NCBI GenBank assembly: GCA_965242865.1
Contig: CBDETK010000013.1
Location: 5,549,567-5,613,566, forward strand
Direction: 5' to 3'
DNA: 64,000 bases
DNA from: Candidatus Latescibacterota bacterium
GTDB taxonomy: Bacteria; Latescibacterota; UBA2968; UBA8231
Positions 1 to 64,000 of this stretch are shown here, piece after piece; within the stretch, counting starts at the first letter, position 1; every line of letters begins with the position of its first letter. The notes under the pieces are model-generated. The model searched no databases. It was not told the origin of the DNA and saw only the letters and a list, made by a program, of their open reading frames with translations. Made by a program: the position numbers and the translations under genes.

Positions 1-1535
1 AACCAGTAGTGTAGATTGACCCCGCCGTAGGTGTACGCGATGGAAAGGACCGTCCAAGCGGACGTGACCAAGCTCACGGCAATGGCCAGGAGCAACGCCC
101 AAAAGAGCGGCGGTCGGCGCGTCCCAACAACCTCGGCCAGCCGGGTGCTGTTGGCCGCGGCCGCCATGACGGTCGTGCGAATGTCCCCGGCCCAGCCGTT
201 GGCAAACCCGAGCACCGTCAGCCCTTGCGGCCCAATGGGCGCGGTGCCCAGCGCATTGATCGCAAAGGCGGTGGGCGTCATCTGCGCTCGGCCATACCCC
301 ATGCCTCCCTCGGCGACGATGCGCGTCAAACCGACGAAGACCACAAAGGCGATGGCGAGCAACAGCAGGGCCGCTCCCACCGGCAGTCCCGCGCTTTTTA
401 GCCACACTACCGCGTAGAGGAAGGCCCCGAGCAGGAGCCACACGGCCTTGCGGTAGGAGAGCATCGTCCCCGCGTCCGCCCGCGGTTCCCTTTTCCACGC
501 CCCGACGACGATTCTTTTGAGGTGCCGCCGAGCGGTCCACAAGCAGGCCGCGACCAGGGCGATCAACGCCCCCATGGCCTGCTGGGCGGTTGCGATGGAC
601 CCTTCGGTGTGCATCAGCCGAATTTCTGCAATGCTGAAGCCGAGGGTGTTGAAAAGGCCCAACTGGAAGAAGTTGAGCAAGTAGAAAAACCACAGACTAA
701 AGGAGACCTCTAGGCTCAGGAAGTACGTCAGGCCGAGGACGATAAACCACAAGTTGAACAAGACGCCCCGCATATCGTGAAACACGGTCAGTTGGGTTGA
801 CAGCTCAATGGGGGGAACAAAGGGATAGTACTTGTGCAGGGCATTGATTCCCAATAGGACGAAGGGAATGGCAAATCCCAACCACATCAGCGGTTCCTTG
901 AGAAAGGGATTGACCGCTGAGGGCCGGTCGTCCTCGTGGATCATGTACAGGGGCAACTGGACGAGCGGAAAGATCAAGCGCTCGTTGCGGGCCCATTGTT
1001 CGTGGAGCAGGGCCGACAGGGCGATCATCATCAAATAGAGCGCGACCAAAAAGGAAGCCCACGCCAGCAGGGGCACCAACCACGCGCCCCAAGGGATGGC
1101 CGCCTCGTGGGGCAGCCCTTCGTAGAAGTACTTGATCGCCATTGGGTCTTGCGGCGCCAGCCACGGCTGGATGTACGGGTGGAGCAGCTCGGCCCAGTTG
1201 TTTTCGGGCGTCGCGTAGTAATAGACGCCGGCCAAAAAGGGGACCAATTGAGCCGTGACCCCGGTGGAGGGAATGGCCGAAGCCGCGATCATCATGGCGT
1301 AGATCACCACCAACTCCCGGGCCGACAAGCTCCACTGGCGTCCGATCCACTTGAGCGGAATGTTCACCAACAGCAGGAGAAAGAGGAGGAAGATCGCGCT
1401 CAGGGCGATGAAATCCCCGGTCCAATCGAGGGTTCCCATCACCAAGAGGCCGTAGGGAAAAACCGCGTTGATCGCCACGGCCATCAACGCGCCGACGAAC
1501 AAGGCCCGATTGTCGCTGGCGACGAATGGGTTCAT
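1..1535 (-). CDS. Polytopic membrane protein, DUF6785-like (putative transporter); runs off the left edge
   Basis: Missing from the ORF track because it has no stop inside the window. Manual translation from ATG 1535: MNPFVASDNRALFVGALMAVAINAVFPY...ELVVIYAM...YYYATPENNWAELLHPYIQPWLAP...FYEGLP...IPWGAWLVPLLAW...QWARNERLIFPLVQLP, with many TM helices. ATGA overlap with the upstream stop. Confidence 0.75.
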   Translation of the reverse strand, partial: MNPFVASDNRALFVGALMAVAINAVFPYGLLVMGTLDWTGDFIALSAIFLLFLLLLVNIPLKWIGRQWSLSARELVVIYAMMIAASAIPSTGVTAQLVPFLAGVYYYATPENNWAELLHPYIQPWLAPQDPMAIKYFYEGLPHEAAIPWGAWLVPLLAWASFLVALYLMMIALSALLHEQWARNERLIFPLVQLPLYMIHEDDRPSAVNPFLKEPLMWLGFAIPFVLLGINALHKYYPFVPPIELSTQLTVFHDMRGVLFNLWFIVLGLTYFLSLEVSFSLWFFYLLNFFQLGLFNTLGFSIAEIRLMHTEGSIATAQQAMGALIALVAACLWTARRHLKRIVVGAWKREPRADAGTMLSYRKAVWLLLGAFLYAVVWLKSAGLPVGAALLLLAIAFVVFVGLTRIVAEGGMGYGRAQMTPTAFAINALGTAPIGPQGLTVLGFANGWAGDIRTTVMAAAANSTRLAEVVGTRRPPLFWALLLAIAVSLVTSAWTVLSIAYTYGGVNLHYW

Positions 1536-4176: not shown

Positions 4177-4310
4177 GAAGCGTTCTTAAAACTAGGGTTT
4201 CGGTCTCTGATTCGGCTTGGTCCTTTGCTGGATTCCCGCTTGCGCGGGAATGACCGTACGAGTCGTCATGCAAGACTAGCCAAAAGCAACATGAGTTTTA
4301 AGAACGCTTC
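4177..4310. mobile_element. 134-bp MITE with IS5(IS1031)-type ends carrying a REP
   Basis: Perfect 17-bp TIR gaagcgttcttaaaact (4177-4193) / agttttaagaacgcttc (4294-4310); TAA on both flanks (4174-4176, 4311-4313); TIR resembles that of the IS5 at 49105. Confidence 0.8.
4230..4254. repeat. REP palindrome GGATTCCC-N8-GGGAATGAC
   Basis: ggattcccgcttgcgcgggaatgac; other copies at 11928, 62378, 62428. Confidence 0.85.
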
Positions 4311-6401: not shown

Positions 6402-8939
6402 ATGGTCCGCCCTCGTCTTCTCCTGCTGCTCCTGCTGGTTCCGCTGCCCGCGACTGCCCAATACGAAGTGACCATAGAAGGCAAAGCCTACCAACTCGTG
6501 CTCGCCCGCGATCTCGTCGCGGCCATCCAACGCGCCCCGGCCGATACCGTCCTCGAATACAATCGCCTCGTGGTGCAGGGGCCGCTCGACTGGACCGGCC
6601 ACACCCTGAGCGCGGCCCTCGCCTTTGCGGATGTGCGCTTTACCGGCCCCGTAGTCTTAGAACGCGCCGTTTTTCTCCAGCCGATGCACTTTGTTCGCGC
6701 CCATTTTGAGCAGGGGCTCTCCCTGCTTGAAACCCGCCTCAACCGCGGGTTTTCTTGCCGCGACTGCCGCATAGAGGGCCAAGCCAATTTCAACCGGACC
6801 TTGCTCGCCGATACCGTGGATTTTTCGGCCACCCAGTTTTCGGCTGCGGCCCTTTTTCAGCAGACCCACTTTGGCGGCGCAACCACCTTTGAACGCGCCA
6901 AATTTGAGGGCGCGACCTATTTCGACCGGGCCACCTTCGCCCGCGCCGCCCTTTTTCGGGATGCTTCCTTTGCCGACTTGGCTTCCTTCAAAGAAGCGGT
7001 GTGGCAATCGACCGCGTCCTTTGCCGGGGCTCGCTTTGGCGCGGACGCCCTGTTCGCGCAAACCCGCTTTGCCAACCCCGCTGCGTTCGCCTCGGCTTAC
7101 TTTGGCGGCGCAGTTCACTTCGAGCGCGCTGATTTCGCGGCTGCGGTCACCTTCCGCCGCGCTGTCTTTGGCGGTCCGGCTCGCTTTGGCGGTGCCCACT
7201 TTCGCGCCGCAGCGTTCTTTGGCGACAGCCGCTTCAAGCGGGCGGCCACCTTTGCTGGCGCGACCTTTGCCCGGCCTTTCCAGCCCAGTGCCGACTTTAG
7301 CGTCGCCCCGGACTTAGCCGATGTGACCGCTCCGCTCATCAAGGTCGCAGTCCGCCCGATTCCACCGCTGGCCCCGGCCGCCCCTAGCTGCGACCCGATT
7401 CAGTTGGCCGATGTCACCCAAGCGGCCGGCCTCAACTTTGAGCACTACAACGGCTTTTCGGGCGAATACTACTACGTCGAAACCTTTGGCGCCGGGGCGG
7501 CGTTCCTCGACGCGGATGGCGATGGCTGGCTCGATCTCTATCTGGTCAACGGCGCGCCCCTGAGCGGCGAACGCCCCGACCCAATTCCCGTCAATCGCCT
7601 GTACCGCAACACGGGGGCCGGCGGTTTCGCGGATGTGACCGCGGGCTCGGGGACCGGGCACCCCGGCTACGGCATGGGCTGCACGGCCGGCGACTACGAC
7701 GCCGATGGGGACGTGGACCTCTACGCGACCAACGTTGGCCCCAACCTCTTGCTGCGCAACGAGGGCCATGGGCACTTTGCCGATGTGACCGCGGCGGTCG
7801 GCGGGGGCGATGCTCGGTGGGGCACCAGTTGCGGCTTTCTAGACTACGACCTCGACGGCGATTTGGATCTCTACGCGACGAACTACGTAGAATTTGACCG
7901 GCAAAAAAACAGGGTCTGCGCTGAGGGCGGAATCCGCTCCTATTGCGAGCCAAAATTTTACGAGCCGGTCCGCGATGTGCTCTACCGCAACGAGGGCGGC
8001 CAATTCCGCGATGTGGCGTCCGCGGCGGGAATCACCCACGAGGGGCGCGGCTTGGGCGTGGCGTTCTCGGATTACGATCTCGACGGCGACACCGACCTGT
8101 ACGTGGCCAACGACGGCACCATGAATTTCCTCTACCAAAACCAAGGAGGGCGCTTTGCCGAGGTCGGCCTCTACGCCGGCGGACGCTACAACGAGGACGG
8201 CTTGGCCGAAGCCGGCATGGGGGTAGAGTTTGGGGATTGGGACAACGACGGCTTCCAAGATATTTTCGTAACCAACTTCGCCCACGAGACCAATACCCTG
8301 TACGGCAACGATGGGCAGGGGCAATTCTACGACATCACCCAACGCGCCGGCCTAGCCGAGTGCAGCTACAAACCGCTGGGCTTTGGCACCAATTTCCTCG
8401 ACTACGACAACGACGGCGACCTCGACCTCTTTGTCGCCAACGGCCACGTCATGGACAAAATCGCTCAGGTCCACCCGGACCACGCTTACCCGCAGCCCAA
8501 TCAGGTGCTGTGCAACCAGCGGGGAATCCGCTTTGCCGAGGTCGCTGCTGGGGGCCTTCCCGCGCTCGCGGCCGCAGCCGTAAGCCGCGCTTCGGCCACG
8601 GCCGATTACGACAACGACGGCGACCTCGACCTGCTGGTGACCAATGTCGCTGCTGTCCCCAACCTCCTGCGCAACGACCGAGGCAACCGCCAGCACTATC
8701 TGACGATTCACTTGGAAGCTCTCGGAACCCGCGTCGCGGTGACAGCCGGTGGGCAGTGCCAAGTCAAGGAATACCAGTCGGGCGGTAGCTATCTTGCGAG
8801 CAGCGACCCTCGGCTCCACTTTGGCCTAGGAGCGGCCACCTCGGCCACGGTCCAAATTCACTGGCCCGACGGCACGGTGCAGATCATGGAAAAAGTGGCG
8901 GCCAATCAGATCATCTCCATAATTCAATCCAAACCCTGA
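6402..8939 (+). CDS. Secreted pentapeptide-repeat + CRTAC1/ASPIC-UnbV FG-GAP fusion protein
   Basis: ATG 6402 with signal peptide; about 200 aa of AxFxxAxF pentapeptide repeats; then DADGDGWLDLY-type repeats and SGGSYLASSDPRLHFGLG. Confidence 0.85.
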   Translation: MVRPRLLLLLLLVPLPATAQYEVTIEGKAYQLVLARDLVAAIQRAPADTVLEYNRLVVQGPLDWTGHTLSAALAFADVRFTGPVVLERAVFLQPMHFVRAHFEQGLSLLETRLNRGFSCRDCRIEGQANFNRTLLADTVDFSATQFSAAALFQQTHFGGATTFERAKFEGATYFDRATFARAALFRDASFADLASFKEAVWQSTASFAGARFGADALFAQTRFANPAAFASAYFGGAVHFERADFAAAVTFRRAVFGGPARFGGAHFRAAAFFGDSRFKRAATFAGATFARPFQPSADFSVAPDLADVTAPLIKVAVRPIPPLAPAAPSCDPIQLADVTQAAGLNFEHYNGFSGEYYYVETFGAGAAFLDADGDGWLDLYLVNGAPLSGERPDPIPVNRLYRNTGAGGFADVTAGSGTGHPGYGMGCTAGDYDADGDVDLYATNVGPNLLLRNEGHGHFADVTAAVGGGDARWGTSCGFLDYDLDGDLDLYATNYVEFDRQKNRVCAEGGIRSYCEPKFYEPVRDVLYRNEGGQFRDVASAAGITHEGRGLGVAFSDYDLDGDTDLYVANDGTMNFLYQNQGGRFAEVGLYAGGRYNEDGLAEAGMGVEFGDWDNDGFQDIFVTNFAHETNTLYGNDGQGQFYDITQRAGLAECSYKPLGFGTNFLDYDNDGDLDLFVANGHVMDKIAQVHPDHAYPQPNQVLCNQRGIRFAEVAAGGLPALAAAAVSRASATADYDNDGDLDLLVTNVAAVPNLLRNDRGNRQHYLTIHLEALGTRVAVTAGGQCQVKEYQSGGSYLASSDPRLHFGLGAATSATVQIHWPDGTVQIMEKVAANQIISIIQSKP

Positions 8940-8954
8940 TCCAAGGAGTTGCCG

Positions 8955-10928
8955 ATGATCACCAACTCCCCCGTACTCGGGCTCTTCGCCGCCCTGCTAA
9001 TGCTGGGCGCGGCCTGTTCCCCAAGCCCGGATGACGACGCCTTAGAAAAGCACCTTCGCCTCACCCGCCAAAACCCCACCGCGCCCCCTGCGTACTACAA
9101 CTTGGCCGTAGCCTATACGCAAGCCGGTCGCTACGACGAAGCCCAGCGCAATTACGCCAAAGCACTCGACCTCGATCCAAACTATGCCCTAGCCCACGAT
9201 GGCTTGGGGCTTTTGGCGCAACGGCGCGGGGCCTTAGAAGAGGCCGCGGCCCACTTTCAAAAGGCCCTTGACCTCGACTCCACCTTGGCCTCGACGAGCA
9301 ATAATCTGGGCAACATCCACTACCAGAAAGACTCTTTAGAAAAAGCGGTCGCGGCGTATCGAGCGGCCGTGCGCCAAGCACCCGAGCACATTGCGTTCTA
9401 CATCAATCTCGCCCGCGCTTTACGAGATCGACGCGAACTGGACCAAGCGGAGGCAGTCTTGTTGCAGGCCGTTGACCGCGACCCATTTTCTCGGGAAGGC
9501 CATGCGGCTTTGGGCCATCTGTACGCGGAAAGTTTTCGCATTGAAGCCGCGATAGCCGCTTACGGCGAGGCTCTCCGCATCGCGCCGAGTGCCGACCTCC
9601 ACATCCGCTTGGGAGATGTCTATACCCGCGTCAAAAAACTGGACGAGGCGATCCGCGAGTACGAAAGCGCCTTGGAATTGGATCAAGACAACGCCGAAGC
9701 TCGCTACAAGCTGGGGGCGATCTACGCCAGCTATCAGCGCGTCCCCGAAGCCGTGGCGTGGGCCGAAAAAGCCGTCGCCCTCGATCCGACCCAGACAGCG
9801 GCCCTACAACTCTTGGCGCGGCTATACGCCAACCAAGGCTCGTACGACCAAGCCGAAAAAGCCCTGCTGCAAGCCATTGAGGCCGCTCCCAACGCGATGG
9901 AAGCCCGCAGCGAACTGGGGGCGCTCTACATCCGCCAAGCCCAGTACCAAAAGGCCGAAGCCATCTTAAAAGAAGCTGTGGCCCTGGATCCGCAGCACGG
10001 CGAATCGCGGCGGCAGTTGGGCCTGCTCTATGGCGACTTGAATCGCCCCGCGGAAGCGGCCCAGATGCTGCGCCAAGTGCTCGAAATCGATCCCATGCAC
10101 CCGGAAGCTCACTACAACTTAGCCAACGTCTTGCTCGCGCTGGGCCAAGCGACCGAGGCCGAGCGCCTGCAAAACCGCTTTGAACGCCTCGTGCGCCTCC
10201 ACAACCACATCGACCAGTTGCAGCAGATGCTAGCCGCTACCCCGGCCAACGCCGAAGCCCGCTGGCGTCTGGCACGTGCTTACCTCATGCTCCAGCAGTG
10301 GGAAAAAGCCGAAGCCCAGTACCGCTTTCTGCTCTCCAGCGCGCCGACCCATTTGGAGGCGCGTCTCCAGTTAAGCGGCCTCTACGCCCAGCGCGGCAAA
10401 TTCGCCAGTGCGCTGCGGGTGTGCCAAGAGGCCCTAGCGCACAGCCCCCCGGACTCGGCCCTCTATAAAATCTACTTCGCGCTCGGTCATCTCTATCACG
10501 CCGAGGGCCGCATTGAGGAGGCCGAAGACGCCTTAGAGCGCACCTTGGCACTCGCGCCTACCCACGCCCAAGCCTATAACAATCTGGGCAACATCTATCT
10601 AGCAAAAGACGAGCTCCAACGGGCGGCTACGGCCTACCAAAAGGCCCTTGAGGTCGCGCCCGATTTTGCCGAAGCCCACTACAACTTGGGCCGCCTCTAC
10701 GCCCACCAGAACGCGCCGGCCAAGGCTGCACGCCAGTACCAAGCCGCCCTGCGGACGGATTCTACCTACGCCAGAGCGCATTACGCCCTGGGCGTTCTCT
10801 ACCAAGAGGCCGCGCAACCCGGCCGCGCCATCCGCGCGTACGAGCATTTCCTCGCGCAGTGGCGGGGCGACCCGCGCCTCACCCAATCCGCCCAAGCGGC
10901 ATTGGCGCGGCTTACCGCTTCCGAGTGA
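8955..10928 (+). CDS. TPR-repeat lipoprotein
   Basis: RBS aaggag before ATG 8955; lipobox-like LGAAC; many TPRs (AYYNLA, AHYNLG, AYNNLGNIY). Confidence 0.88.
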   Translation: MITNSPVLGLFAALLMLGAACSPSPDDDALEKHLRLTRQNPTAPPAYYNLAVAYTQAGRYDEAQRNYAKALDLDPNYALAHDGLGLLAQRRGALEEAAAHFQKALDLDSTLASTSNNLGNIHYQKDSLEKAVAAYRAAVRQAPEHIAFYINLARALRDRRELDQAEAVLLQAVDRDPFSREGHAALGHLYAESFRIEAAIAAYGEALRIAPSADLHIRLGDVYTRVKKLDEAIREYESALELDQDNAEARYKLGAIYASYQRVPEAVAWAEKAVALDPTQTAALQLLARLYANQGSYDQAEKALLQAIEAAPNAMEARSELGALYIRQAQYQKAEAILKEAVALDPQHGESRRQLGLLYGDLNRPAEAAQMLRQVLEIDPMHPEAHYNLANVLLALGQATEAERLQNRFERLVRLHNHIDQLQQMLAATPANAEARWRLARAYLMLQQWEKAEAQYRFLLSSAPTHLEARLQLSGLYAQRGKFASALRVCQEALAHSPPDSALYKIYFALGHLYHAEGRIEEAEDALERTLALAPTHAQAYNNLGNIYLAKDELQRAATAYQKALEVAPDFAEAHYNLGRLYAHQNAPAKAARQYQAALRTDSTYARAHYALGVLYQEAAQPGRAIRAYEHFLAQWRGDPRLTQSAQAALARLTASE

Positions 10929-52938: not shown

Positions 52939-52976
52939 TGCGATGATTTGACGCACTTGTGCGATATATCCGCGCA
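52939..52976 (+). promoter_or_regulatory. Paired enhancer-like sites TGCG-N9-CGCA (UAS 1)
   Basis: tgcgatgatttgacgca (52939) and tgcgatatatccgcgca (52960), 21 bp apart; repeated at 58382/58403. Confidence 0.75.
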
Positions 52977-53121
52977 CTTTTAGGCCGTCAAAAGGGCTAC
53001 ACAAAGAGCCTAAGAGACGAATGAGAAAATTTTGCTAATTTTTACAAACCATTGTTTAACAATTATTTATAATATATAAAACCAAACATATCAGCGCGAT
53101 TATCACCTGTTGACTACCTAC

Positions 53122-53137
53122 TGGCACGATAATTGCT
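53122..53137 (+). promoter_or_regulatory. sigma54 (-24/-12) promoter 1
   Basis: TGGCACG-ATAA-TTGCT, a perfect consensus match after an AT-rich tract. Confidence 0.88.
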
Positions 53138-53296
53138 ATATACTTACTGAAGCAACAACCCGCCCTCGTCCACAGCAACAGAACGGAGGGAATGCTTATG
53201 AAGGACATCGTCTCAACGGGCTTGGGGCTTGCAGCCCTAGCGGCCAGTGCTTCCCCGCGGAGATCGCCGCGAGATGACAAAACCAAGGAGAACACC

Positions 53297-54136
53297 ATGA
53301 AACCCGTAGCCATTCAAACCCTGTATTTCGCCCTAGTCGCCATTTGGTTCGCTGTCTCCAGCATAGCCGCTGCCGAGAAGCCCCAATACGGCGGCTTTTC
53401 ATCTAACCCCGACAGCCTCCAGCCCTTCTACGACTATATCCACGGTCAAGAGATGATGAAGGTCGAGGCCGGTGATGAATTGCGGCGTGCTATAGACGCC
53501 ATCCCGGTTGACTTGGGTACTGCCATTGATCTGGAGCAAGAAGCCGGACTGCGAGACTGGCTCTACGACTTGCTGGTCGCCTTTTCGGCGTCAGGCAACG
53601 ACAGCCTCGCCGCCGCGTTTTACCTGCGCGAGGGCTTCAATAATCCCGACCTAGCAGTGCAGATGATAAAGGAGGTTGAGCGTAGGGGGATCTCAATAGG
53701 CAATACCGATACGCCTTTTGCCTTCTGTAAAAGTATGCACAAGTTCGCGCTCAATTTTTTAGCGGAGCGCGACTATTTCTTTGAAAACGTGTCTTTTTTT
53801 GATAGCGTGTTCAAAGTGTTCGAGATGCAGGAAGCGTACGATAGCTATGAGTCCTACCTCAAGACCCATGGCATGATTCCGAGAGGCATAGACTTCTTTG
53901 ACCTCATCAAAATGCGGAAAGAAGTTGAGGAGCGATTGCAAAAGGGTGCCCAACTGGTCTTTGTCGATGTCATGTTCATCGTTGAAGAGCCTGAGCAGTT
54001 CTCAACATTCGAGAGGCCGGGGCGCACCCCGTCCTTTTTTCGGCTAGCTTGGGACTCAGAGAAGGGTGTTTGGCGCCATGTAGAGATCTATTTTAGCCAA
54101 GGTGTGCCGCAAGATTTTTTATTTAACATCATGTGA
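53297..54136 (+). CDS. Secreted hypothetical protein, paralog A
   Basis: RBS aaggag, signal peptide ending AAA; homologous over full length to 54265-55095. Confidence 0.85.
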   Translation: MKPVAIQTLYFALVAIWFAVSSIAAAEKPQYGGFSSNPDSLQPFYDYIHGQEMMKVEAGDELRRAIDAIPVDLGTAIDLEQEAGLRDWLYDLLVAFSASGNDSLAAAFYLREGFNNPDLAVQMIKEVERRGISIGNTDTPFAFCKSMHKFALNFLAERDYFFENVSFFDSVFKVFEMQEAYDSYESYLKTHGMIPRGIDFFDLIKMRKEVEERLQKGAQLVFVDVMFIVEEPEQFSTFERPGRTPSFFRLAWDSEKGVWRHVEIYFSQGVPQDFLFNIM

Positions 54137-54264
54137 GCAACGTAAAGGAAGTCGCCCTCGGGTTGGTCAGCGAATCTCTACAATGTACATTTCGGCCCCG
54201 GGGTGGTGGCCTAGTCGCCGCTCCCCAAGGCAACCCAATGGACTTAAAAAGAAAAGAGGTATAG

Positions 54265-55095
54265 ATGAAAATCCTAGCCATTCGCATCTTGTCTGTCGCC
54301 CTGATCGCTGTCGCCAGCACAGCCATAGCCGAGCCTACATCCCAATACGGCGGCTTTTCATCTAACCCCGACAGCCTCCAGCCCTTCTACGACTATATCC
54401 ACGGTCAAGAGATGATGAAGGTCGAGGCCGGTGATGAATTGCGGCGTGCTATCGACGCCATCCAGGTTGACTTGGGCGTTGCCATCGATCTGGAGCAAGA
54501 AGCCGGGCTACGCGACTGGCTCTACGATCTCTTGGTCGCCTTTTCGGCTTCGGGCAGCGATAGTCTCGCCGTTGCATTTTACATGCGAGAGGGGGCAACC
54601 AACTCCGACCTAATAGAGCAGGTAAGCAAGGAGGCTAAGAGCCAAGGAATCCTAACAGGCGATACCGACACGCCCCTTGCTTTCTTTCGCAGCTTTCACA
54701 AGGTCGTGCTCAACATGGCGGAGCGCGATTATTTCTTCGCCAATGTGTCTTTCTTCGACAGCGTGTTCAAGGTGTTTGAGATGCAAAAAGAATACGATAG
54801 CTATGAGTCCTATCTCGACACGCATGGCATGCTTCCCAAGGGCAGCGTGTTCTTTGAGCACATCAAACTACGGCAAGAGGTCGAAAAACGCTTGCAAGGG
54901 AGCACCCCACTGATCTTTGCCGACGTCATGTTCATCGTCGAGGAGCCCGAAGAATTTAGCACGTTTGAGACCCCGGGGCGTACGCCGACCTTTTTTCGGT
55001 TACTCTGGGATGAAGAGCAGGCGTTGTGGCGTCATGTAGAGGTCTATTTCAGCCTCGGTGTGCCGCATGAATTTCTTCTGTTCAACTTCATGTAA
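54265..55095 (+). CDS. Secreted hypothetical protein, paralog B
   Basis: RBS gaggt, signal peptide ending AIA; QYGGFSSNPDSLQPFYDYIH ... WRHVEVYF. Confidence 0.85.
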   Translation: MKILAIRILSVALIAVASTAIAEPTSQYGGFSSNPDSLQPFYDYIHGQEMMKVEAGDELRRAIDAIQVDLGVAIDLEQEAGLRDWLYDLLVAFSASGSDSLAVAFYMREGATNSDLIEQVSKEAKSQGILTGDTDTPLAFFRSFHKVVLNMAERDYFFANVSFFDSVFKVFEMQKEYDSYESYLDTHGMLPKGSVFFEHIKLRQEVEKRLQGSTPLIFADVMFIVEEPEEFSTFETPGRTPTFFRLLWDEEQALWRHVEVYFSLGVPHEFLLFNFM

Positions 55096-58164: not shown

Positions 58165-58185
58165 CAGTCGTCGTCGCCGCCACTG

Positions 58186-58380
58186 GGGGCGGCGACTGCG
58201 GGGGCGGGGGCGGCGATGGCGATGGCGGCGATGGCGATGGCGATGGGGACGGGGGCGATGGTGGCGGGCGGTGGCGATGGCGGCGACAGCGGCGGTGGCG
58301 ATGGCGGCGACAGCGGCGGTGGCGATGGCGACTGCGGCGATGGCGATGGCGACGACTGCAACGGCGGCGACGACGGGGCC
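58186..58380. repeat. G-rich low-complexity GGCGAT/GGCGAC array
   Basis: Repeated ggcgat hexamers and tandem ggcggtggcgatggcggcgacagc units. Confidence 0.85.
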
Positions 58381-58381
58381 A

Positions 58382-58419
58382 TGCGATGTTTCGACGCACC
58401 TCTGCGATATATCCGCGCA
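58382..58419 (+). promoter_or_regulatory. Paired enhancer-like sites TGCG-N9-CGCA (UAS 2)
   Basis: tgcgatgtttcgacgca (58382) and tgcgatatatccgcgca (58403). Confidence 0.75.
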
Positions 58420-58562
58420 CTTTCAGCGCATCCAGCGGCTTTCGCAAAGTACCTAAGAGCCGGCCACGAAAATAATTTTATCTCCACAAAACATTATATA
58501 ACAACTAGTTACAACCATCATCCCCAAGAAATCGCCGCAATCATCACCCTCTACCTCCCTAT

Positions 58563-58578
58563 TGGCACGATAATTGCA
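58563..58578 (+). promoter_or_regulatory. sigma54 (-24/-12) promoter 2
   Basis: TGGCACG-ATAA-TTGCA. Confidence 0.88.
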
Positions 58579-58700
58579 ATAATACTCACTGACCACAACA
58601 CTCAAGAAGGATTCATCGCAATGCGAGCAGCCAGCACAAAACGCGAACCAATTGACCCCCTCAGCAGCCAGTGCCCTAAGCTGCGGAAAGGAGTGTAATT

Positions 58701-60212
58701 ATGTATTCCATTTTCTACGTCTTCGGCCTGCTGGTGTGCGCCGTCGCCGCCAACGCCGAGACCCTGACCAAGGAGCAGCAGCGCATCCTGCTCGACCTCG
58801 AAGAGGCCCATCTGACCCGCCAACAAGCCCAAGCACACGAGGCTGAGATCGCCATTGAGCACGAGCAGATGATTGGCCTCAAGGAACGCGGCGTGGTCAC
58901 CGGCCAAGAGCTGCGCCGCGCCCGCGAGCGATTTGAGCGCGCCGGCCAGATGCGGCAACAAGCCGACCTCAACCTCCAGCGCGCCTTTCTCAACTCCCTC
59001 AGCGACGCCACCCACCTAACGGTCGTCAACGGCCAAAAGTACGGGGTCGAGGGCGACAAGGTGCGCGTGCGGCTCACCCTGCGGAATGACTCGGACCTCC
59101 ACTTGGCGCAAATGGTCGATCGCGCCCGCCGCCGCTACGCCATCAACGGCCTCGACCAAGACGCAGAGTCCCTGTTGCAGGTCAACAACATCTTCGTCAC
59201 CATCCTCGCCGACCGCGTCATGGTCGGCCAGCCCTACCAAGTCCACATCCCGGTGCTGGCCCTCGGCGAGGAAGTCGAAGTCGAAGTCGGCTTGCAGCGG
59301 CCCGAAGTCGAAGACCTCACCGTGCAGCTCCAATACCTCAACCGCACGGACGACCACGTCATCCACCTAGAGAAAGCGTCGGCCCGCGACGTCGTGCGCG
59401 TGTATGCCACTCAGTTTTCTCAAGAAGGCCCGCTGGGCAATTCCGTGGAATACGAGTTGCAGCTAGAGCGGCTGGCCGAAGACGAAAAGATCTTCCAATT
59501 GATGGCGCACGGCCTGCCCGACGACTTCCGCTGGGAGTTTGCCAGCGGGGGCCGCACCCTGTCGCGGCTGCGCTTTTCCCGCGACCACTCCAACGATTCC
59601 CTGACCCTCAACGTGTACGTGCCCGAACAGGCCGTCAGCTTTGCCGTGGACCAGCCGCTCGTGTTCTCGGTGCTCGCCTACGATCCCAAGGACATCGAAG
59701 CCGAGGTGTTGGCCGCGGCCGACCCCGACCGCCTGCAAGCCATGGGCATTGGCTACGAGCAACTGCAACTGGTGCCCACCGGCCGCGCCGAGCTGGAGTT
59801 GAGCACCCTCAACCTCGACCTCGCCGTCAATGGCGCCGGCGAGTCCCAGTCCGTTTGGCAGCTCCGCAACCTCGGCACGGTGGAATTGCTCGACATCCGC
59901 CTACAAGCCCTGTCGCCGCCCGGCTGGGAAGTGTCCTTTGAGCCGCAGGAAATCGCCCTGCTACAGCCGCGTGCGGAGGTAGAAGCCCTGCTGACCGTGC
60001 GGCCAGTCAACAGCGCCGAAATCGGCCGCTACGAAGTCAAGACCAGCGCCAGCACCCAGCACAAGGGGCAGTGGGTCGAGTCGGTCGAGCGCACCGTCAA
60101 CATAAACATCAAGAGCGATGGGTCGTTTTGGGGCATCACCGGGTTGGTGCTCTTGCTGGTGACCATCGTGCTCGGCGTGGCTGTCTTCACCGTGCAATGG
60201 AGCAAGCGATGA
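58701..60212 (+). CDS. Secreted, C-terminally anchored protein: coiled-coil hairpin + Ig-like (NEW3/NPCBM-associated-like) domains
   Basis: Signal peptide; helical GVVTGQEL hairpin; LRNLG..PPGWEVSFEP..IGRYEV; C-terminal TM + KR. Confidence 0.75.
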   Translation: MYSIFYVFGLLVCAVAANAETLTKEQQRILLDLEEAHLTRQQAQAHEAEIAIEHEQMIGLKERGVVTGQELRRARERFERAGQMRQQADLNLQRAFLNSLSDATHLTVVNGQKYGVEGDKVRVRLTLRNDSDLHLAQMVDRARRRYAINGLDQDAESLLQVNNIFVTILADRVMVGQPYQVHIPVLALGEEVEVEVGLQRPEVEDLTVQLQYLNRTDDHVIHLEKASARDVVRVYATQFSQEGPLGNSVEYELQLERLAEDEKIFQLMAHGLPDDFRWEFASGGRTLSRLRFSRDHSNDSLTLNVYVPEQAVSFAVDQPLVFSVLAYDPKDIEAEVLAAADPDRLQAMGIGYEQLQLVPTGRAELELSTLNLDLAVNGAGESQSVWQLRNLGTVELLDIRLQALSPPGWEVSFEPQEIALLQPRAEVEALLTVRPVNSAEIGRYEVKTSASTQHKGQWVESVERTVNINIKSDGSFWGITGLVLLLVTIVLGVAVFTVQWSKR

Positions 60213-61606
60213 CTGCCTACCGATTGGCCTTAGCCGCCCTCGCCTGCGGGGCGAGCGCCCTGTGCGCCGAGGAGTGGGACCTAACGACCTGTCAGCGCGC
60301 GGCCGGCCAGCACAGCCCGGTGATCGAGGCGGCGCGCGCCCGCTGGCATACGACGCGCGCGCGCACCCGCCTCGATGTGGCCGAGCAACTGCCGGACGTT
60401 GGCCTGCAAGCCCAGTACGAGCGCAGCGACTGGGCGGACGCGACCGCGCCAGAGGCCGACCAACGCGCACTGTTCTTGCAAGCCCGGCAAGAGCTCTTGC
60501 GCTACGGGGCCACCACCCCAACGCGCTTTGCCGCCCAGCACCGCGAGCAGGCCGAAAAGGCGCGCTACCGCCAAGCCATCATCGACGTGGATAGCCAAGT
60601 GCGCCAAGCCTATTACCGCCTGCTGCTGACGCGCGACGAAATCGCCAACCGCGACGAGTTGCTCGCGTACTTCCGCGCCAAAATGGAGCGGGTGCAAACG
60701 CGCCTCGACGCCGGCTTGGCCCGGCCAGTGGAGCTGTACGAAGCCGAGCTCGAAGTGCTCGAAGAGCAGGCGCGCATCAACCACCTCCAGCGCACCCTGC
60801 GCGCCCTGCATCTACAGCTCTTCACCGAGATTGGCTTGGTGGGCAAACGCTCGCTGCGCGCCCTTGAGATTGTCGGCCCGCCCTACGAGCAACTGCAATT
60901 GCTCGACCCCAGCGAAGCGGATTTGCCCGGCCTGCTCGAGGAAGCCCGGGCCAACCGGCCGCAACTGGACGAACTCGTCTGGCAAATCGGCCAACAGCAG
61001 CGGCAGGCCCGCAGCGTGTTGTGGCAATGGGCACCTCACGTCGGCCTGCAACTGACCAAGGATTTCCAAGACACGGACCTCGGCTTGGACTGGAGCGGCA
61101 ACGGCCAGACTTGGAAGCTGGTGGGGTCGGGCCGCCGGTCGCTGGCCAGCCGGGGCTTGGCGGCCGAGCCGGACGCGGGCGAGGGCTGGCGGGTGATGGC
61201 CAACGTGTCGCTGCCCCTGTTCCAAGGGGGGCGGCGGCTGGCCCAGCGCACCGAGGAGAACGCGCGGCTCCACGAGCTGCGCCAAAACCGCGACGAGACC
61301 CGCCACTGGATCGAACTCGAAGTGGTGGAGGCGTTTTACGATTTGAAGAGCCGGCAGGAAAACACCCAGATTCTGCGCCGGCGTGCGGACGTGGCTCGCC
61401 AGCGGTTGGACACGGTCGAAGAGCTGTTTGAAAACGCCATGGGCAACCTCAACTTCGACGACATCCGCCGCCAGCGCACCGCCGTCAACCTAGCCGAGCA
61501 GCGCTACTTCGCCGAGCGCTTGGCGTACATCCTCGCGGCCGAAAAGCTGCGGCGGATCTTGGGCCGAGCCCTCAACAGCGAGTTTTACCAAACCCGTGAT
61601 CAGTAA
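60209..61606 (+). CDS. TolC family outer-membrane efflux protein
   Basis: Signal peptide, VRQAYY, RLDAGLA, VSLPLFQGG, EVVEAFY. Confidence 0.85.
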   Translation: MTAYRLALAALACGASALCAEEWDLTTCQRAAGQHSPVIEAARARWHTTRARTRLDVAEQLPDVGLQAQYERSDWADATAPEADQRALFLQARQELLRYGATTPTRFAAQHREQAEKARYRQAIIDVDSQVRQAYYRLLLTRDEIANRDELLAYFRAKMERVQTRLDAGLARPVELYEAELEVLEEQARINHLQRTLRALHLQLFTEIGLVGKRSLRALEIVGPPYEQLQLLDPSEADLPGLLEEARANRPQLDELVWQIGQQQRQARSVLWQWAPHVGLQLTKDFQDTDLGLDWSGNGQTWKLVGSGRRSLASRGLAAEPDAGEGWRVMANVSLPLFQGGRRLAQRTEENARLHELRQNRDETRHWIELEVVEAFYDLKSRQENTQILRRRADVARQRLDTVEELFENAMGNLNFDDIRRQRTAVNLAEQRYFAERLAYILAAEKLRRILGRALNSEFYQTRDQ

Positions 61607-61634
61607 CCCCTGATCGCAAAGAAAGGATCGCCTC

Positions 61635-62359
61635 ATGTTGGAGATCATCGGACTTTCCAAGCACTACGGTGACGTCAAAGCGGTCACCGACCTCACCCTG
61701 ACCGTCGAAGAAGGGGAGATTTTCACCATGCTCGGTGCCAACGGCGCCGGCAAGACCACCACCTTGATGGTCGCGTTGGGCTTTACCGAACCCACCGAGG
61801 GGACGGTCAAGCTGTGCGGCATCGACATCACCGAGCAGCCCTTAGAGGCCAAAAAGCACGTGGCGTACGTCTCGGAAAACGTCATGCTCTACGGCAACTT
61901 CAGCGCGCGGCAAAACTTGGATTTCTTCACCCGCTTGAGCGGCCAGCCGCCCCAAGACGCGGCCCAGTACGACCAGATCATGGGGCGGGTGGGGCTGCAA
62001 TCGGAGGCGTTTGACCGCCCGGGTCAAGGAGTTTTCCAAGGGGATGCGGCAGAAGCTGGGCATTGCCATTGCCATCGCCAAGGACGCCCGCATCGTGCTG
62101 CTCGACGGAGCCGACCTCTGGCCTCGATCCCAAGTCCGGGGCCGAGTTCTTGGCGTTGCTGGACCAGTTGCGCGACGAGGGCAAGGCCATCTGGATGACG
62201 ACCCACGACGTGTTCCGGGCGCGGGTGATCGCCGACCGACTCGGCATCATGGTCGAGGGCCACCTCGTCAAGACGCTCAGCCGCGCCGAGTTCCAAGAGG
62301 CCGACTTGGAGCGGCTCTACGTCGAGTACGTGGAGCAGCCCGTCGTGCCAGCGGCTTAG
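61635..62359 (+). CDS. ABC ATP-binding protein carrying two +1 frameshifts (sequencing error or pseudogene)
   Basis: GANGAGKTT in frame 1; FSKGMRQK..IVLLD in a second frame after about 62018; EPTSGLDP..TTHD in a third frame after about 62107. Confidence 0.85.
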
Positions 62360-62377
62360 GGGACGCAGGGGGTTTCT

Positions 62378-62452
62378 GGATTCCCGCGTTCGCGGGAATG
62401 ACGGTAGGAGCGTTCGCGGGGGGCTCCGTCATTCCCGTGAAAACGGGAATCC
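62378..62452. repeat. Inverted pair of REP palindromes
   Basis: ggattcccgcgttcgcgggaatgac (62378) and gtcattcccgtgaaaacgggaatcc (62428). Confidence 0.85.
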
Positions 62453-62526
62453 AGCCGAGATCGTTTGGACGCAAGAAACGACCACCAGAGTTTGCAGACC
62501 GCTTCTTAGGATGGAGGCATGCTGAC

Positions 62527-63000
62527 ATGGAAACCACGGCGCTGGACTCAATTCACCAAAAGCGCATATACGGATTGGCGTACCAGTATATGACCAACCG
62601 CGAGGATGCCGAGGATGTCGTCCAAGAGGTGCTGCTCCGCCTGTGGGACCACAATTCCGGCCTTACCGGCCAAGCTCAGGAGGCTTGGATCTATCGGGTG
62701 ACGCGCAACGCCTGTTTGGACGCCTTGCGGCGGCGGAACAGCTATCGCTCGGCGGTTGAGACTCGGGCGGGCGAACCCGCCGGGCAGAACGCCTCGGCGG
62801 TCGAGGGGAGCTTGCTCCAGCACCTCGGCATTGAGGAGGCCCTGAGCCGATTGGCCGAGCCTTACCGAACCGTTATCCGGCTGCGGTATTTTAAGGGGCT
62901 GTCTTGCAAAGCGACGAGTCAGGAGCTAGGGATGCCCCTTAGTACGGTCAAAGTATATCTCCACCGCGGCCGGAGACGCCTGCGGGACCTTTTGGAGTAA
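62527..63000 (+). CDS. ECF sigma-70 factor
   Basis: RBS ggagg; DAEDVVQEVLLRLW..WIYRVTRNACLDALRRR; region 4 LGMPLSTVKVYLHRGRRRL. Confidence 0.9.
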   Translation: METTALDSIHQKRIYGLAYQYMTNREDAEDVVQEVLLRLWDHNSGLTGQAQEAWIYRVTRNACLDALRRRNSYRSAVETRAGEPAGQNASAVEGSLLQHLGIEEALSRLAEPYRTVIRLRYFKGLSCKATSQELGMPLSTVKVYLHRGRRRLRDLLE

Positions 63001-63045
63001 ATCGATCGACGTGTTCTACAATCTGCTCCACTTTTTTATTTTTTT

Positions 63046-63075
63046 TGTAACATTTTTCTAACGGCATACGTTATT
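63046..63075 (+). promoter_or_regulatory. Putative ECF promoter copy 1
   Basis: TGTAAC-N17-CGTT after a T-tract; duplicated near 63796. Confidence 0.6.
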
Positions 63076-63139
63076 ACTTATGAAGCGTTCTTAAAACAGA
63101 TAAAGACGATCTTTCACCTCCACCTCAAGGGGGACTGTC

Positions 63140-63334
63140 ATGAAGCGGAAACTGTCGAAAGTGGCCATCGGCCTCATTGCCCTCGCTGTGCAACTCTTGC
63201 CGAGCAAAGCAGAGGCTATAACGTGCTGCATAGAACTGCCGAGTGGGGTCAAGATGTGCATCTATTGCCCTAGTGACGCTAGCTGCGAATTTGAGCTGTT
63301 AGGCAACGGCAATTATAGGGTTATGTGCATATAG
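63140..63334 (+). CDS. Small secreted cysteine-rich peptide (26-aa signal, 38-aa mature, 6 Cys)
   Basis: RBS aagggg; MKRKLSKVAIGLIALAVQLLPSKAEA then ITCCIELPSGVKMCIYCPSDASCEFELLGNGNYRVMCI. Confidence 0.8.
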   Translation: MKRKLSKVAIGLIALAVQLLPSKAEAITCCIELPSGVKMCIYCPSDASCEFELLGNGNYRVMCI

Positions 63335-63427
63335 CCAACTTGCCCAGCAGCTATCCTCGGTTGATCTACATACCCTCCACTTTGCCTTGAGTTATCGAGG
63401 ATAACTTGCGAGGGAGGCAGGCTCGTC

Positions 63428-63776
63428 ATGAAAAACACGTATCGCTACTCAATATACCAAAAGCGCATATACGGATTAGCGTGCCAGTATATGGCCAACC
63501 GCGAGGATGCCGAGGACGTCGTCCAAGAGGTGCCTGCCCCGCCTGTGGAACCATCACTCTTGCCTTACCAGCGAAGGGCAGGAGGCTTGGATAGGGCGGG
63601 TGACGCGCAACGCCTGTTTGGACGCCTTGCGTTGCGGCGACGGAACAACTATCGCTCGGCTGTCGGGACTCAGGCAGGCGAAGCAGCCGTGCAGAACGCC
63701 CCGGTGGTTGAGACGAATTTGCTTCAGCACCTCGGCATCGAGGAGGCTCTGAGCCGACTGGCGGAGCCCTACCGAT
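63428..63776 (+). pseudogene. Frameshifted, region-4-deleted copy of the ECF sigma gene
   Basis: Close DNA match to 62550-62868; frameshifts near 63533 and 63630; ends at AEPYR then jumps to the downstream promoter copy. Confidence 0.85.
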
Positions 63777-63795
63777 TTTATTTTTTTATTTTTTT

Positions 63796-63825
63796 TGTAA
63801 CATTTTCCTAACGGCATCCGTTATT
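63796..63825 (+). promoter_or_regulatory. Putative ECF promoter copy 2
   Basis: tgtaacattttcctaacggcatccgttatt, nearly identical to copy 1. Confidence 0.6.
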
Positions 63826-63877
63826 ACTTATGAGAAGCGTTCTTAAACAATGCGAAAATCATGCAAGGAGGCTTTCT

Positions 63878-64000
63878 GTGAAAACGCTTACGCTCTTGTG
63901 CAGTGCGCTTATTATCACACCCGTACCCAGTCAAGCCCGCGAAGGGGGCTATGGCGGCTTTACCCAAGAGAACATACAGGAGTTTTACGACTACATACAC
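63878..64000 (+). CDS. Secreted hypothetical protein, paralog C (5' part; runs off the right edge)
   Basis: RBS aaggagg, GTG; MKTLTLLCSALIITPVPSQAREGGYGGFTQENIQEFYDYIH matches YGGF..FYDYIH of paralogs A and B. Confidence 0.75.
   Translation, partial: MKTLTLLCSALIITPVPSQAREGGYGGFTQENIQEFYDYIH

Follow-up and report, generated by a model that had tools for sequence, protein, structure and literature searches.

A duplicated ECF sigma factor gene and its candidate promoter in a secretion gene cluster of a sponge-associated Latescibacterota bacterium

The sigma factor locus

The window analysed here, a stretch of 64,000 nucleotides from an uncultured sponge-associated Candidatus Latescibacterota bacterium (genome G000, contig C13, positions 5549567-5613566), ends with the final base of a 5.61-Mb contig and carries near that end, inside a secretion and export gene cluster, two copies of a gene for an extracytoplasmic function (ECF) sigma factor, each followed by a promoter-like block. 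The features described below lie on the + strand unless stated otherwise. The intact sigma gene (62527..63000) encodes 157 amino acids and is followed by a predicted promoter, designated hereafter P1 (63032..63073), which consists of a T-tract, a -35 element TGTAAC (63046-63051), a 17-nt spacer and a -10 element CGTTA (63069-63073). A solo GAAGCGTTCTTAAA motif resembling the terminal repeat of a miniature inverted-repeat transposable element (MITE) lies at 63082..63095, about at the predicted transcript start. It precedes pep1 (63140..63334), an open reading frame (ORF) encoding a 64-aa cysteine-rich precursor. The second copy begins with what appears to be an ancestral sigma leader (63366..63427; the 3' half of the hairpin that follows the ATPase gene, with the region of the ribosome-binding site, RBS), continues with a sigma pseudogene (63428..63775) and a second block, P2 (63776..63823; T-tract, -35 TGTAAC at 63796-63801, -10 CGTTA at 63819-63823), and has its own GAAGCGTTCTTAAA motif (63834..63847). 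Behind it starts the gene designated paralog C (63880..64000), with a GTG start codon after AAGGAGG, which is cut by the contig end 121 nt into the gene.

The intact gene product gave matches to Sigma70_r2 (PF04542, 63.6 bits, cut-off 24) and Sigma70_r4_2 (PF08281, 56.3 bits, cut-off 25.7) and to the superfamily model TIGR02937 (92.1 bits, cut-off 42.9); it holds regions 2 and 4 only and is therefore a minimal ECF sigma factor, group IV of the sigma-70 family. Among NCBIfam equivalog and subfamily models none reached its cut-off (best NF058625, 103.3 against 130), no HrpL model was among the best 25 NCBIfam matches, and an attempt at ECF group classification with Pfam and NCBIfam returned generic matches only. 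Region 2.2 contains a DAED motif (sequence NREDAEDVVQEV), which a passage in PMC8999054 gives as a mark of intrinsically active ECF sigma factors, unlike the phosphorylation-dependent ECF43.

Upstream of the sigma gene, a sigma54-type promoter TGGCACGATAATTGCA (58563..58578), an exact match to TGGCAY-N5-TTGCW, is predicted to head an operon of three genes. These encode a 503-aa NPCBM_assoc (NEW3) domain protein with a C-terminal transmembrane (TM) helix (58701..60212; PF10633, 44.9 bits), a TolC-like outer membrane efflux protein (60209..61606; Pfam OEP, 120 bits, in two stretches) and an ABC transporter ATPase (61635..62359; Pfam ABC_tran). Between the ATPase and sigma genes lie nested palindromes like those of repetitive extragenic palindromes (REP) and MITEs (62373..62509, no strand assigned), present in dozens of copies genome-wide. 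REP-like palindromes of the form GGATTCCCGCG...CGCGGGAATGAC likewise occur in dozens of copies across the genome, and contig depth over 62373..62509 and over the REP/MITE repeats was extreme in metagenome runs. At the other end of the operon, approximately 220 nt of GGCGAT/GGCGGC-type triplet repeats (58173-58390) separate the stop codon of an ABC-2 permease gene from the sigma54 upstream region.

Duplication and decay of the second copy

As the original prediction had claimed, the unit of sigma gene and promoter block occurs twice, the second sigma gene has decayed and lacks region 4, and the block behind it has kept its -35 and -10 elements ahead of paralog C. The second copy (63428-63775) is 84.8% identical to 62527-62868, differing at 52 of 342 gapless positions, and these mismatches fall on codon positions 1, 2 and 3 as 15/14/23, a near-even spread indicating relaxed constraint. 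Insertions of one base near 63534 and of five bases (TTGCG) near 63632 add up to +6, so that a 127-aa ORF is still open while about 32 codons, covering sigma regions 2.2-2.4, are out of frame. Homology ends with ...TACCGA at 63775, followed by 6 nt and the T-tract; these 6 nt stand in place of 163 nt of the intact copy (62869-63031), which run from region 4 through the stop codon to 31 nt past it.

Contigs of four public sequencing runs (Logan) were aligned to 61500-64000, with X1 and X2 from one study, X4 from another and X6 from a third. Contigs of X1 and X2 covered 63188-63626 and 63602-63811, and an X4 contig covered 63263-63811, all with 0 differences and 0 gaps; contigs of X6 covered the dead copy in part. 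A further contig starting at 63782 extended past the end of the window by 171 nt (X1/X2) or 187 nt (X4), and in X1 and X2 position 63818 separated this copy from its counterpart at C13:8237. An artefact might have been suspected, given that the window ends at a contig end inside a 219-nt repeat and that the same assembly has two indel errors 1.4 kb upstream. The contigs from different studies nevertheless span both indels and the junction without a gap, which shows that the pseudogene indels and the truncation junction are real; misassembly of the second copy, the doubt raised along with the original prediction, was thereby ruled out, and we give an artefact only a vanishingly small probability. 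The second copy is a pseudogene: its frame is disrupted, an essential domain is lost, and no sequencing error is involved. In the ABC ATPase gene, a single base each at 62018 and 62107 was missing from the contigs of all four runs; real frameshifts in that gene were rejected in favour of indel errors of the assembly, the gene itself being intact.

The X4 run also yielded a 3070-nt contig, from a sponge metagenome, covering 62479-63270 with 32 differences. From 63170 it is pep2-like (pep2 being a second peptide gene at C13:311..502), with the sigma gene and P1 thereby joined to a pep2-like gene, and a further 2279 nt do not resemble the window. This arrangement suggests a strain without the unit of pseudogene, P2 and paralog C, and may have arisen by recombination between pep1 and pep2 or represent the earlier state.

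The leader in front of the pseudogene (63366..63427) matches the sequence that precedes the sigma gene of the closest relative in the genus (G046) at 89% identity over 54 nt. It gave no match to the sequence ahead of the intact gene at 62527, whose own hairpin and leader have been overwritten by the palindromic repeat. The presence of the ancestral leader indicates that the duplicated unit started in the ancestral hairpin between the ATPase and sigma genes; it ends approximately 22 nt past the peptide gene. No sigma pseudogene was seen in the 20-kb loci of G046, G019, G002 and G005.

Over 52 positions (63032-63083 against 63782-63833) the two promoter blocks differ by 2 mismatches, both in the spacer, with identical -35 and -10 elements; at the divergence rate of the sigma copies, this has a binomial probability of 0.01. 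Two occurrences of the pattern TGTAAC-N17-CGTT were counted in the window, where shuffled sequences would give 0.02. A third intact block, P3, was identified at C13:8237 ahead of a full-length paralogue, paralog C' (8271..9230), and a fourth at C13:12603 has decayed, with the -10 CGTT changed to CATT and no gene downstream. From 63782 to 64000 the window is identical to C13:8223-8441 at 218 of 219 positions (99.5%), whereas the 3' ends of the paralog C and paralog C' genes are only 83% identical, which points to gene conversion of the promoter heads. Because of this near-identity of P2 and P3, the survival of P2 may reflect gene conversion among promoter heads as much as selection, and the 218/219 match counts against selection as its cause.

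The original prediction went too far in one respect, in that gaagcgttcttaaa had been taken as part of the promoter-specific unit. With at most one mismatch, GAAGCGTTCTTAAA has 46 matches in the genome, of which 3 lie in promoter blocks, and eleven inverted pairs 130-160 nt apart identify it as the terminal repeat of a MITE-like element; gaagcgttcttaaa is thus a genome-wide MITE end. The element is approximately 135-160 bp long (for example, window 4177-4310), with terminal inverted repeats GAAGCGTTCTTAA(A/C)A, usually with TNA in front.

The locus evidently runs on from the end of C13 to its start, as would be expected of a circular chromosome broken at a repeat. The start of C13 carries, in order, the C-terminal 72 codons of a paralog C gene, pep2 (311..502), DUF1573, a GT1-transglutaminase fusion, GT2, two ABC-2 permeases, P3, paralog C', two further ABC-2 permeases and the decayed fourth block. 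The frames of the paralog C fragments at the end and at the start of the contig (L001 1-220) do not join, which means that several hundred bases are missing. In G046 (L031 14124-14465 and 19067) two promoter heads have identical 5' untranslated regions; behind the first of them come just 75 codons of paralog C and, after these, the DUF1573-GT genes. The promoter-head module appears from these sequences to be a recurrent rearrangement joint that is uniform within a genome.

Pairing of the sigma factor and the promoter across the genus

The 31 genomes of the genus were searched with the sigma factor by tblastn, and 13 had a match at E <= 1e-30, forming two clades. The orthologous clade comprises seven full-length genes in six genomes (G000, G046, G019, G002, G005 with two copies, and G014), those in the five other genomes being 81-55% identical to the window sigma. 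The nearest paralogous clade, referred to as the sister clade, contains nine genes in nine genomes at 47-53% identity. In 6/6 assessable orthologues a block of T-tract, TGTAAC, N17 and CGT follows the sigma gene and precedes a paralog C gene, the one in G002 having TAAAAC in place of TGTAAC; the G014 orthologue is cut by a contig end and hence was left outside the six. Measured from where the tblastn match ends, 42 nt short of the last base of the stop codon, the distance to the block is 85-253 nt.

According to a passage in PMC7826278, ECF sigma factors usually autoregulate, which identifies their promoters. All nine sister-clade sigma genes have TGTAAC-N16/17-CGTTAG approximately 60 nt upstream of their own start, and at the single locus examined, in G022, the sigma gene is followed by one for a 173-aa zinc-binding anti-sigma factor (ZAS) with the motif HAATCAAC and a TM helix. 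When the 18 intact promoters were aligned in register, the positions common to all were only TGTAAC, a following TTT, a C and CGT, and the promoter flanks of the orthologous and sister sets were unrelated. The regions predicted to read these elements, 2.4 (AWI.RVTRNACLDALR) and 4.2 (PLNTVKVYLHRGRRRLR), hardly differ between the two clades.

The extended motif TGTAACNTTTNNCN10CGT occurred only at these sites (three in G000, two in G046, one in G019, two in G005 and one in G002), and the reversed pattern, used as a control, gave 0 matches in all five genomes. In the looser form TGTAAC-N15-19-CGTT there were 21 genome matches, only three of which had the rest of the block. Neither a sister-clade sigma factor nor another member of the orthologous clade was found in G000. 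The -35 and -10 elements are unchanged in copy 2, and also in the X4 variant among its 32 other differences.

Very probably, the window sigma factor has its cognate promoter in this block, which heads the peptide and paralog C genes, because the position of the block is conserved in six of six loci, the sister clade has the same site in autoregulatory position in nine of nine genes, regions 2.4 and 4.2 match, and the motif occurs nowhere else in the genome. On the same grounds the sigma regulon is very probably confined to this locus. Comparison of genomes thus supports the earlier proposal that the sigma factor acts on both promoters. Two points weigh against this pairing: it is drawn from comparison only, and both clades are present in G002 and G005, where cross-talk could occur and adjacency alone proves no pairing between sigma factor and block.

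Recognition of TGTAAC-N17-CGTT by a different ECF sigma factor, with the position behind this sigma gene a matter of inherited synteny, would be conceivable given that approximately 20 ECF-like candidates are present in G000 (21 were scored) and that AAC and CGT boxes are common to many ECF groups. We consider this improbable: the identical motif at a sigma factor's own gene was seen only in the sister clade, which is absent from G000, the DNA-reading residues of both clades match, and none of five genomes has the motif outside this locus.

It is less probable still that the block is no promoter at all, being instead the tail of a sigma gene terminator or debris of a mobile element copied with its flanks. 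The long T-tract directly after the sigma gene, the MITE end motif 9 nt past the -10 element and the use of the block as a recombination joint in several genomes would fit such an origin, but no significant hairpin precedes the T-tract (z +1.13) and a gene on the same strand, with a good RBS, always follows the block. Moreover, the block agrees with the sister upstream sites precisely at the ECF -35 and -10 elements, and the sole copy without a gene behind it is the one that has lost CGTT.

With the block read as a promoter of this sigma factor, the genes behind it become the candidate regulon. In the pep1 precursor a signal-like leader, ending in AEA, precedes a core of 38 aa that contains 6 Cys, and pep2 shares 79% protein identity with it. 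The family comprises 10 protein clusters, whose 26-residue leader is invariant and whose core varies around 6 invariant Cys, and no peptide family was found in Pfam or NCBIfam. Family members lie at window 63140-63334, L001 311-502 and C13:4563989-4564147, with GT2 and GT1-transglutaminase fusion genes nearby; the peptide may be modified, perhaps glycosylated.

The start of paralog C in the window is 100% identical to paralog C' over 57 aa, and homologues of 303-313 aa start at the same point. In G000 the family has ten full-length copies and two fragments at contig ends; its secreted proteins of approximately 300 aa (for example, window 53192-55095, L024 and C13:3559067-3559849) almost always adjoin ABC-2/DUF3526 permease pairs. 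A large protein database contains 95 clusters of the family, one of them named (a hypothetical protein of a metagenome-assembled genome), and no Pfam or NCBIfam family matched. An AlphaFold model (predicted local distance difference test score, pLDDT, 86.5; predicted template modelling score, pTM, 0.83) gave nothing at E <= 0.001 in a Foldseek search against the PDB. VIA wide returned middling NTF2-like matches (best Z 6.8, root-mean-square deviation 3.7, 118 aligned), in a range common for that tool; these weak matches suggest an NTF2-like domain with a helical insert. Because paralog C is incomplete at the contig end, the genes downstream of P2 were deduced from the contig start and from relatives, which tempers the regulon proposed for that promoter.

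Supply of the sigma factor and comparison with known systems

The sigma gene does not form a canonical autoregulated module with an anti-sigma gene, as no TGTAAC...CGT pattern lies upstream of 62527 and no anti-sigma gene was found adjoining the sigma gene in any of six loci (G000, G046, G019, G002 and both of G005). No homologue of the sister-clade ZAS was found in G000 either, and pep1 and paralog C carry signal-type N-termini and hence are not cytoplasmic sigma binders. The original prediction that no anti-sigma gene follows therefore held beyond the window. In G005, a sequence GTAAAAC-N16-CGTTA upstream of one sigma copy (G005b) was considered as an autoregulatory site and rejected, as it is not conserved in the other (G005a).

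Gene order may point to another source of the sigma factor. The sigma gene follows the ABC ATPase gene directly and on the same strand in 5/7 loci (G000, G046, G019, G005b and G014), and G046 and G005b also have the sigma54 site found at 58563 ahead of their NEW3 genes. No sigma54 promoter was found in the interval from the ATPase gene to the sigma gene (62360-62526), and a consensus scan of 58300-64000, which includes this interval, detected no + strand sigma70-like promoter. A terminator scan over 58300-64000 gave 3 terminator-like sites against 6.1 expected, none of them between the ATPase and sigma genes. A second sigma54 site, at 53122, has an upstream sequence 75% identical to that of the site at 58563, and the only nearby gene for a bacterial enhancer-binding protein (bEBP) is in a sister locus (C13:4554428) rich in the same paralogues and sigma54 sites.

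Five near-identical sigma54 promoters of the form TGGCACGAT(A/T)(A/G)TTGC(A/T) were counted in G000, in this locus and in a sister locus (L024 3881, 5309 and 15036). The two sigma54 upstream regions in the window (52939-53140 and 58382-58581) share inverted repeats of the TGCG-N9-CGCA type.

Several observations speak against transcription reading through from the sigma54 promoter into the sigma gene. The 168-nt spacer between the ATPase and sigma genes is a very stable nested palindrome (-85.5 kcal/mol, z -3.66), one without a U-tail, and in relatives a GC-rich hairpin with a weakly U-rich tail at this place could terminate transcription. The G005a sigma gene has no ATPase gene upstream, and in G002 (L015 7222-10249) the sigma gene comes last after those for another ECF sigma factor, a ZAS and a 454-aa protein, an arrangement that suggests an ECF-to-ECF cascade in place of sigma54. 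In both arrangements the gene trails the operon of another regulator, which fits transcriptional control as in HrpL. From conserved gene order a sigma54-to-ECF cascade is plausible, and we regard the case for it as evenly balanced.

The pairing of sigma factor and promoter could also be right without such a cascade, if the sigma gene had an unrecognised promoter of its own or were controlled post-transcriptionally. The palindrome or hairpin ahead of the gene in G000, G046, G019 and G005b, the other upstream contexts in G002 and G005a, and approximately 230 nt conserved upstream of the two G005 copies, which could hold a promoter, are all in keeping with this. Set against it are the result of the sigma70 scan in 62360-62526, the want of a proper U-tract in the hairpins, the gene order of the five loci and the G002 operon, which again fits supply by read-through. 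On balance we see it as a possible but distinctly less likely account than read-through from the sigma54-dependent operon.

Taken together, we think it probable that the locus contains an orphan sigma factor with a dedicated promoter, duplicated in this lineage and perhaps supplied by sigma54 read-through. The anatomy of the locus, the pseudogene, the conserved promoter and its restriction to this locus are observed, whereas the reading of that promoter by this sigma factor and the way in which the sigma gene is transcribed are deduced. The product of 62527-63000 would be an ECF sigma factor that is intrinsically active and has no anti-sigma factor, acting as a locus-specific activator of promoters with a T-tract, TGTAAC, 17 nt and CGTTA. 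P1 (63046) would drive the secreted cysteine-rich pep1. P2 (63796) would drive paralog C and, on the far side of the contig junction, probably pep2, DUF1573, the GT1-transglutaminase fusion, GT2 and two ABC-2 permeases, and P3 (C13:8237) paralog C' with two further ABC-2 permeases. A lineage-specific duplication would have copied a unit of leader, sigma gene, promoter, possibly paralog C, and peptide gene, after which the second sigma gene would have lost region 4 by a deletion of approximately 157 nt and had region 2 scrambled by the +1 and +5 indels. P2 may have been kept intact since it still heads a working operon, helped by gene conversion with the other heads. Supply of the sigma factor would most likely be transcriptional, by read-through from the upstream NEW3-TolC-ABC ATPase operon, and the outcome would be a sigma54-to-ECF amplifier without autoregulation.

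A wider scenario is speculative, and we would not at present expect it to hold in full. The orphan sigma factor may derive from a duplicated sigma/ZAS pair, keeping its specificity and being rewired as a non-autoregulated amplifier, mostly of sigma54 and of an ECF pair in G002. Its sole regulon would be a genus-restricted peptide export cluster making a new product of sponge symbionts, like a ribosomally synthesized and post-translationally modified peptide (RiPP) or a glycopeptide. Promoter and paralog C head would form a recombining cassette, kept uniform by gene conversion and reshuffling the first gene, with the dead sigma gene as a by-product.

The pseudogene is a strain-level curiosity and the regulatory arrangement fairly ordinary. 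The locus nonetheless offers a clean predicted pair of sigma factor and promoter for an uncharacterised ECF clade, possibly of use as an orthogonal regulatory part, and defines a likely regulon of a secreted Cys-rich peptide, NTF2-like secreted paralogues, ABC-2 exporters and glycosyltransferases. It would also illustrate a route from a canonical sigma/anti-sigma pair to a pathway-specific orphan sigma factor with the promoter code kept.

Among bacterial promoters, those of the sigma-X and sigma-W type in Bacillus subtilis read TGTAAC-N17-CGAC and TGAAAC-N16-CGTA. They resemble P1 and P2 in the AAC of the -35 element, the CGT of the -10 element and the 16-17 nt spacer, a likeness generic to ECF promoters that implies no membership, B. 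subtilis being of another phylum and these sigma factors of another group. A canonical autoregulated counterpart in the same genus is the sister-clade sigma/ZAS pair (G022, locus L019), at 47-53% identity and with the same -35 TGTAAC, -10 CGTTA and region 2.4/4.2 residues. There, the promoter lies upstream of the sigma factor's own gene and, in G022, an HxxxCxxC anti-sigma factor with a TM helix follows, whereas the promoter in the window lies downstream of the sigma gene and would drive other genes.

The closest analogue appears to be the sigma54-dependent HrpL, a well-known precedent for the cascade proposed here. Passages in PMC8999054 and PMC5263251 describe HrpL (ECF32) of Pseudomonas syringae, in the HrpRS/sigma54 cascade, as an ECF sigma factor without an anti-sigma factor that is supplied by transcription. 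The window sigma factor resembles HrpL, as far as those passages describe it, in having no anti-sigma factor and in being the predicted dedicated activator of one secretion-related cluster. It differs in that hrpL has its own sigma54 promoter, whereas here the site heads an operon of three genes, 3.96 kb upstream, and supply of the sigma factor would depend on read-through. Unlike HrpL with HrpRS, it has no adjoining bEBP gene, the nearest candidate being that at C13:4554428, and its cargo is an ABC/TolC/peptide cluster and not a type III secretion system. Other transcriptionally regulated ECF sigma factors given in a passage of PMC8999054 are SigE/CseBC (ECF39) and PA3285 under PvdS, the latter an ECF-to-ECF cascade. 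As described there, an upstream regulator sets the level of the sigma factor, to which the G002 orthologue behind its ECF/anti-sigma operon would correspond; unlike SigE/CseBC, the window sigma gene has no two-component system adjoining it. Judged by its sequence, the arrangement would belong to the known class of ECF sigma factors that lack an anti-sigma factor and are supplied by transcription.

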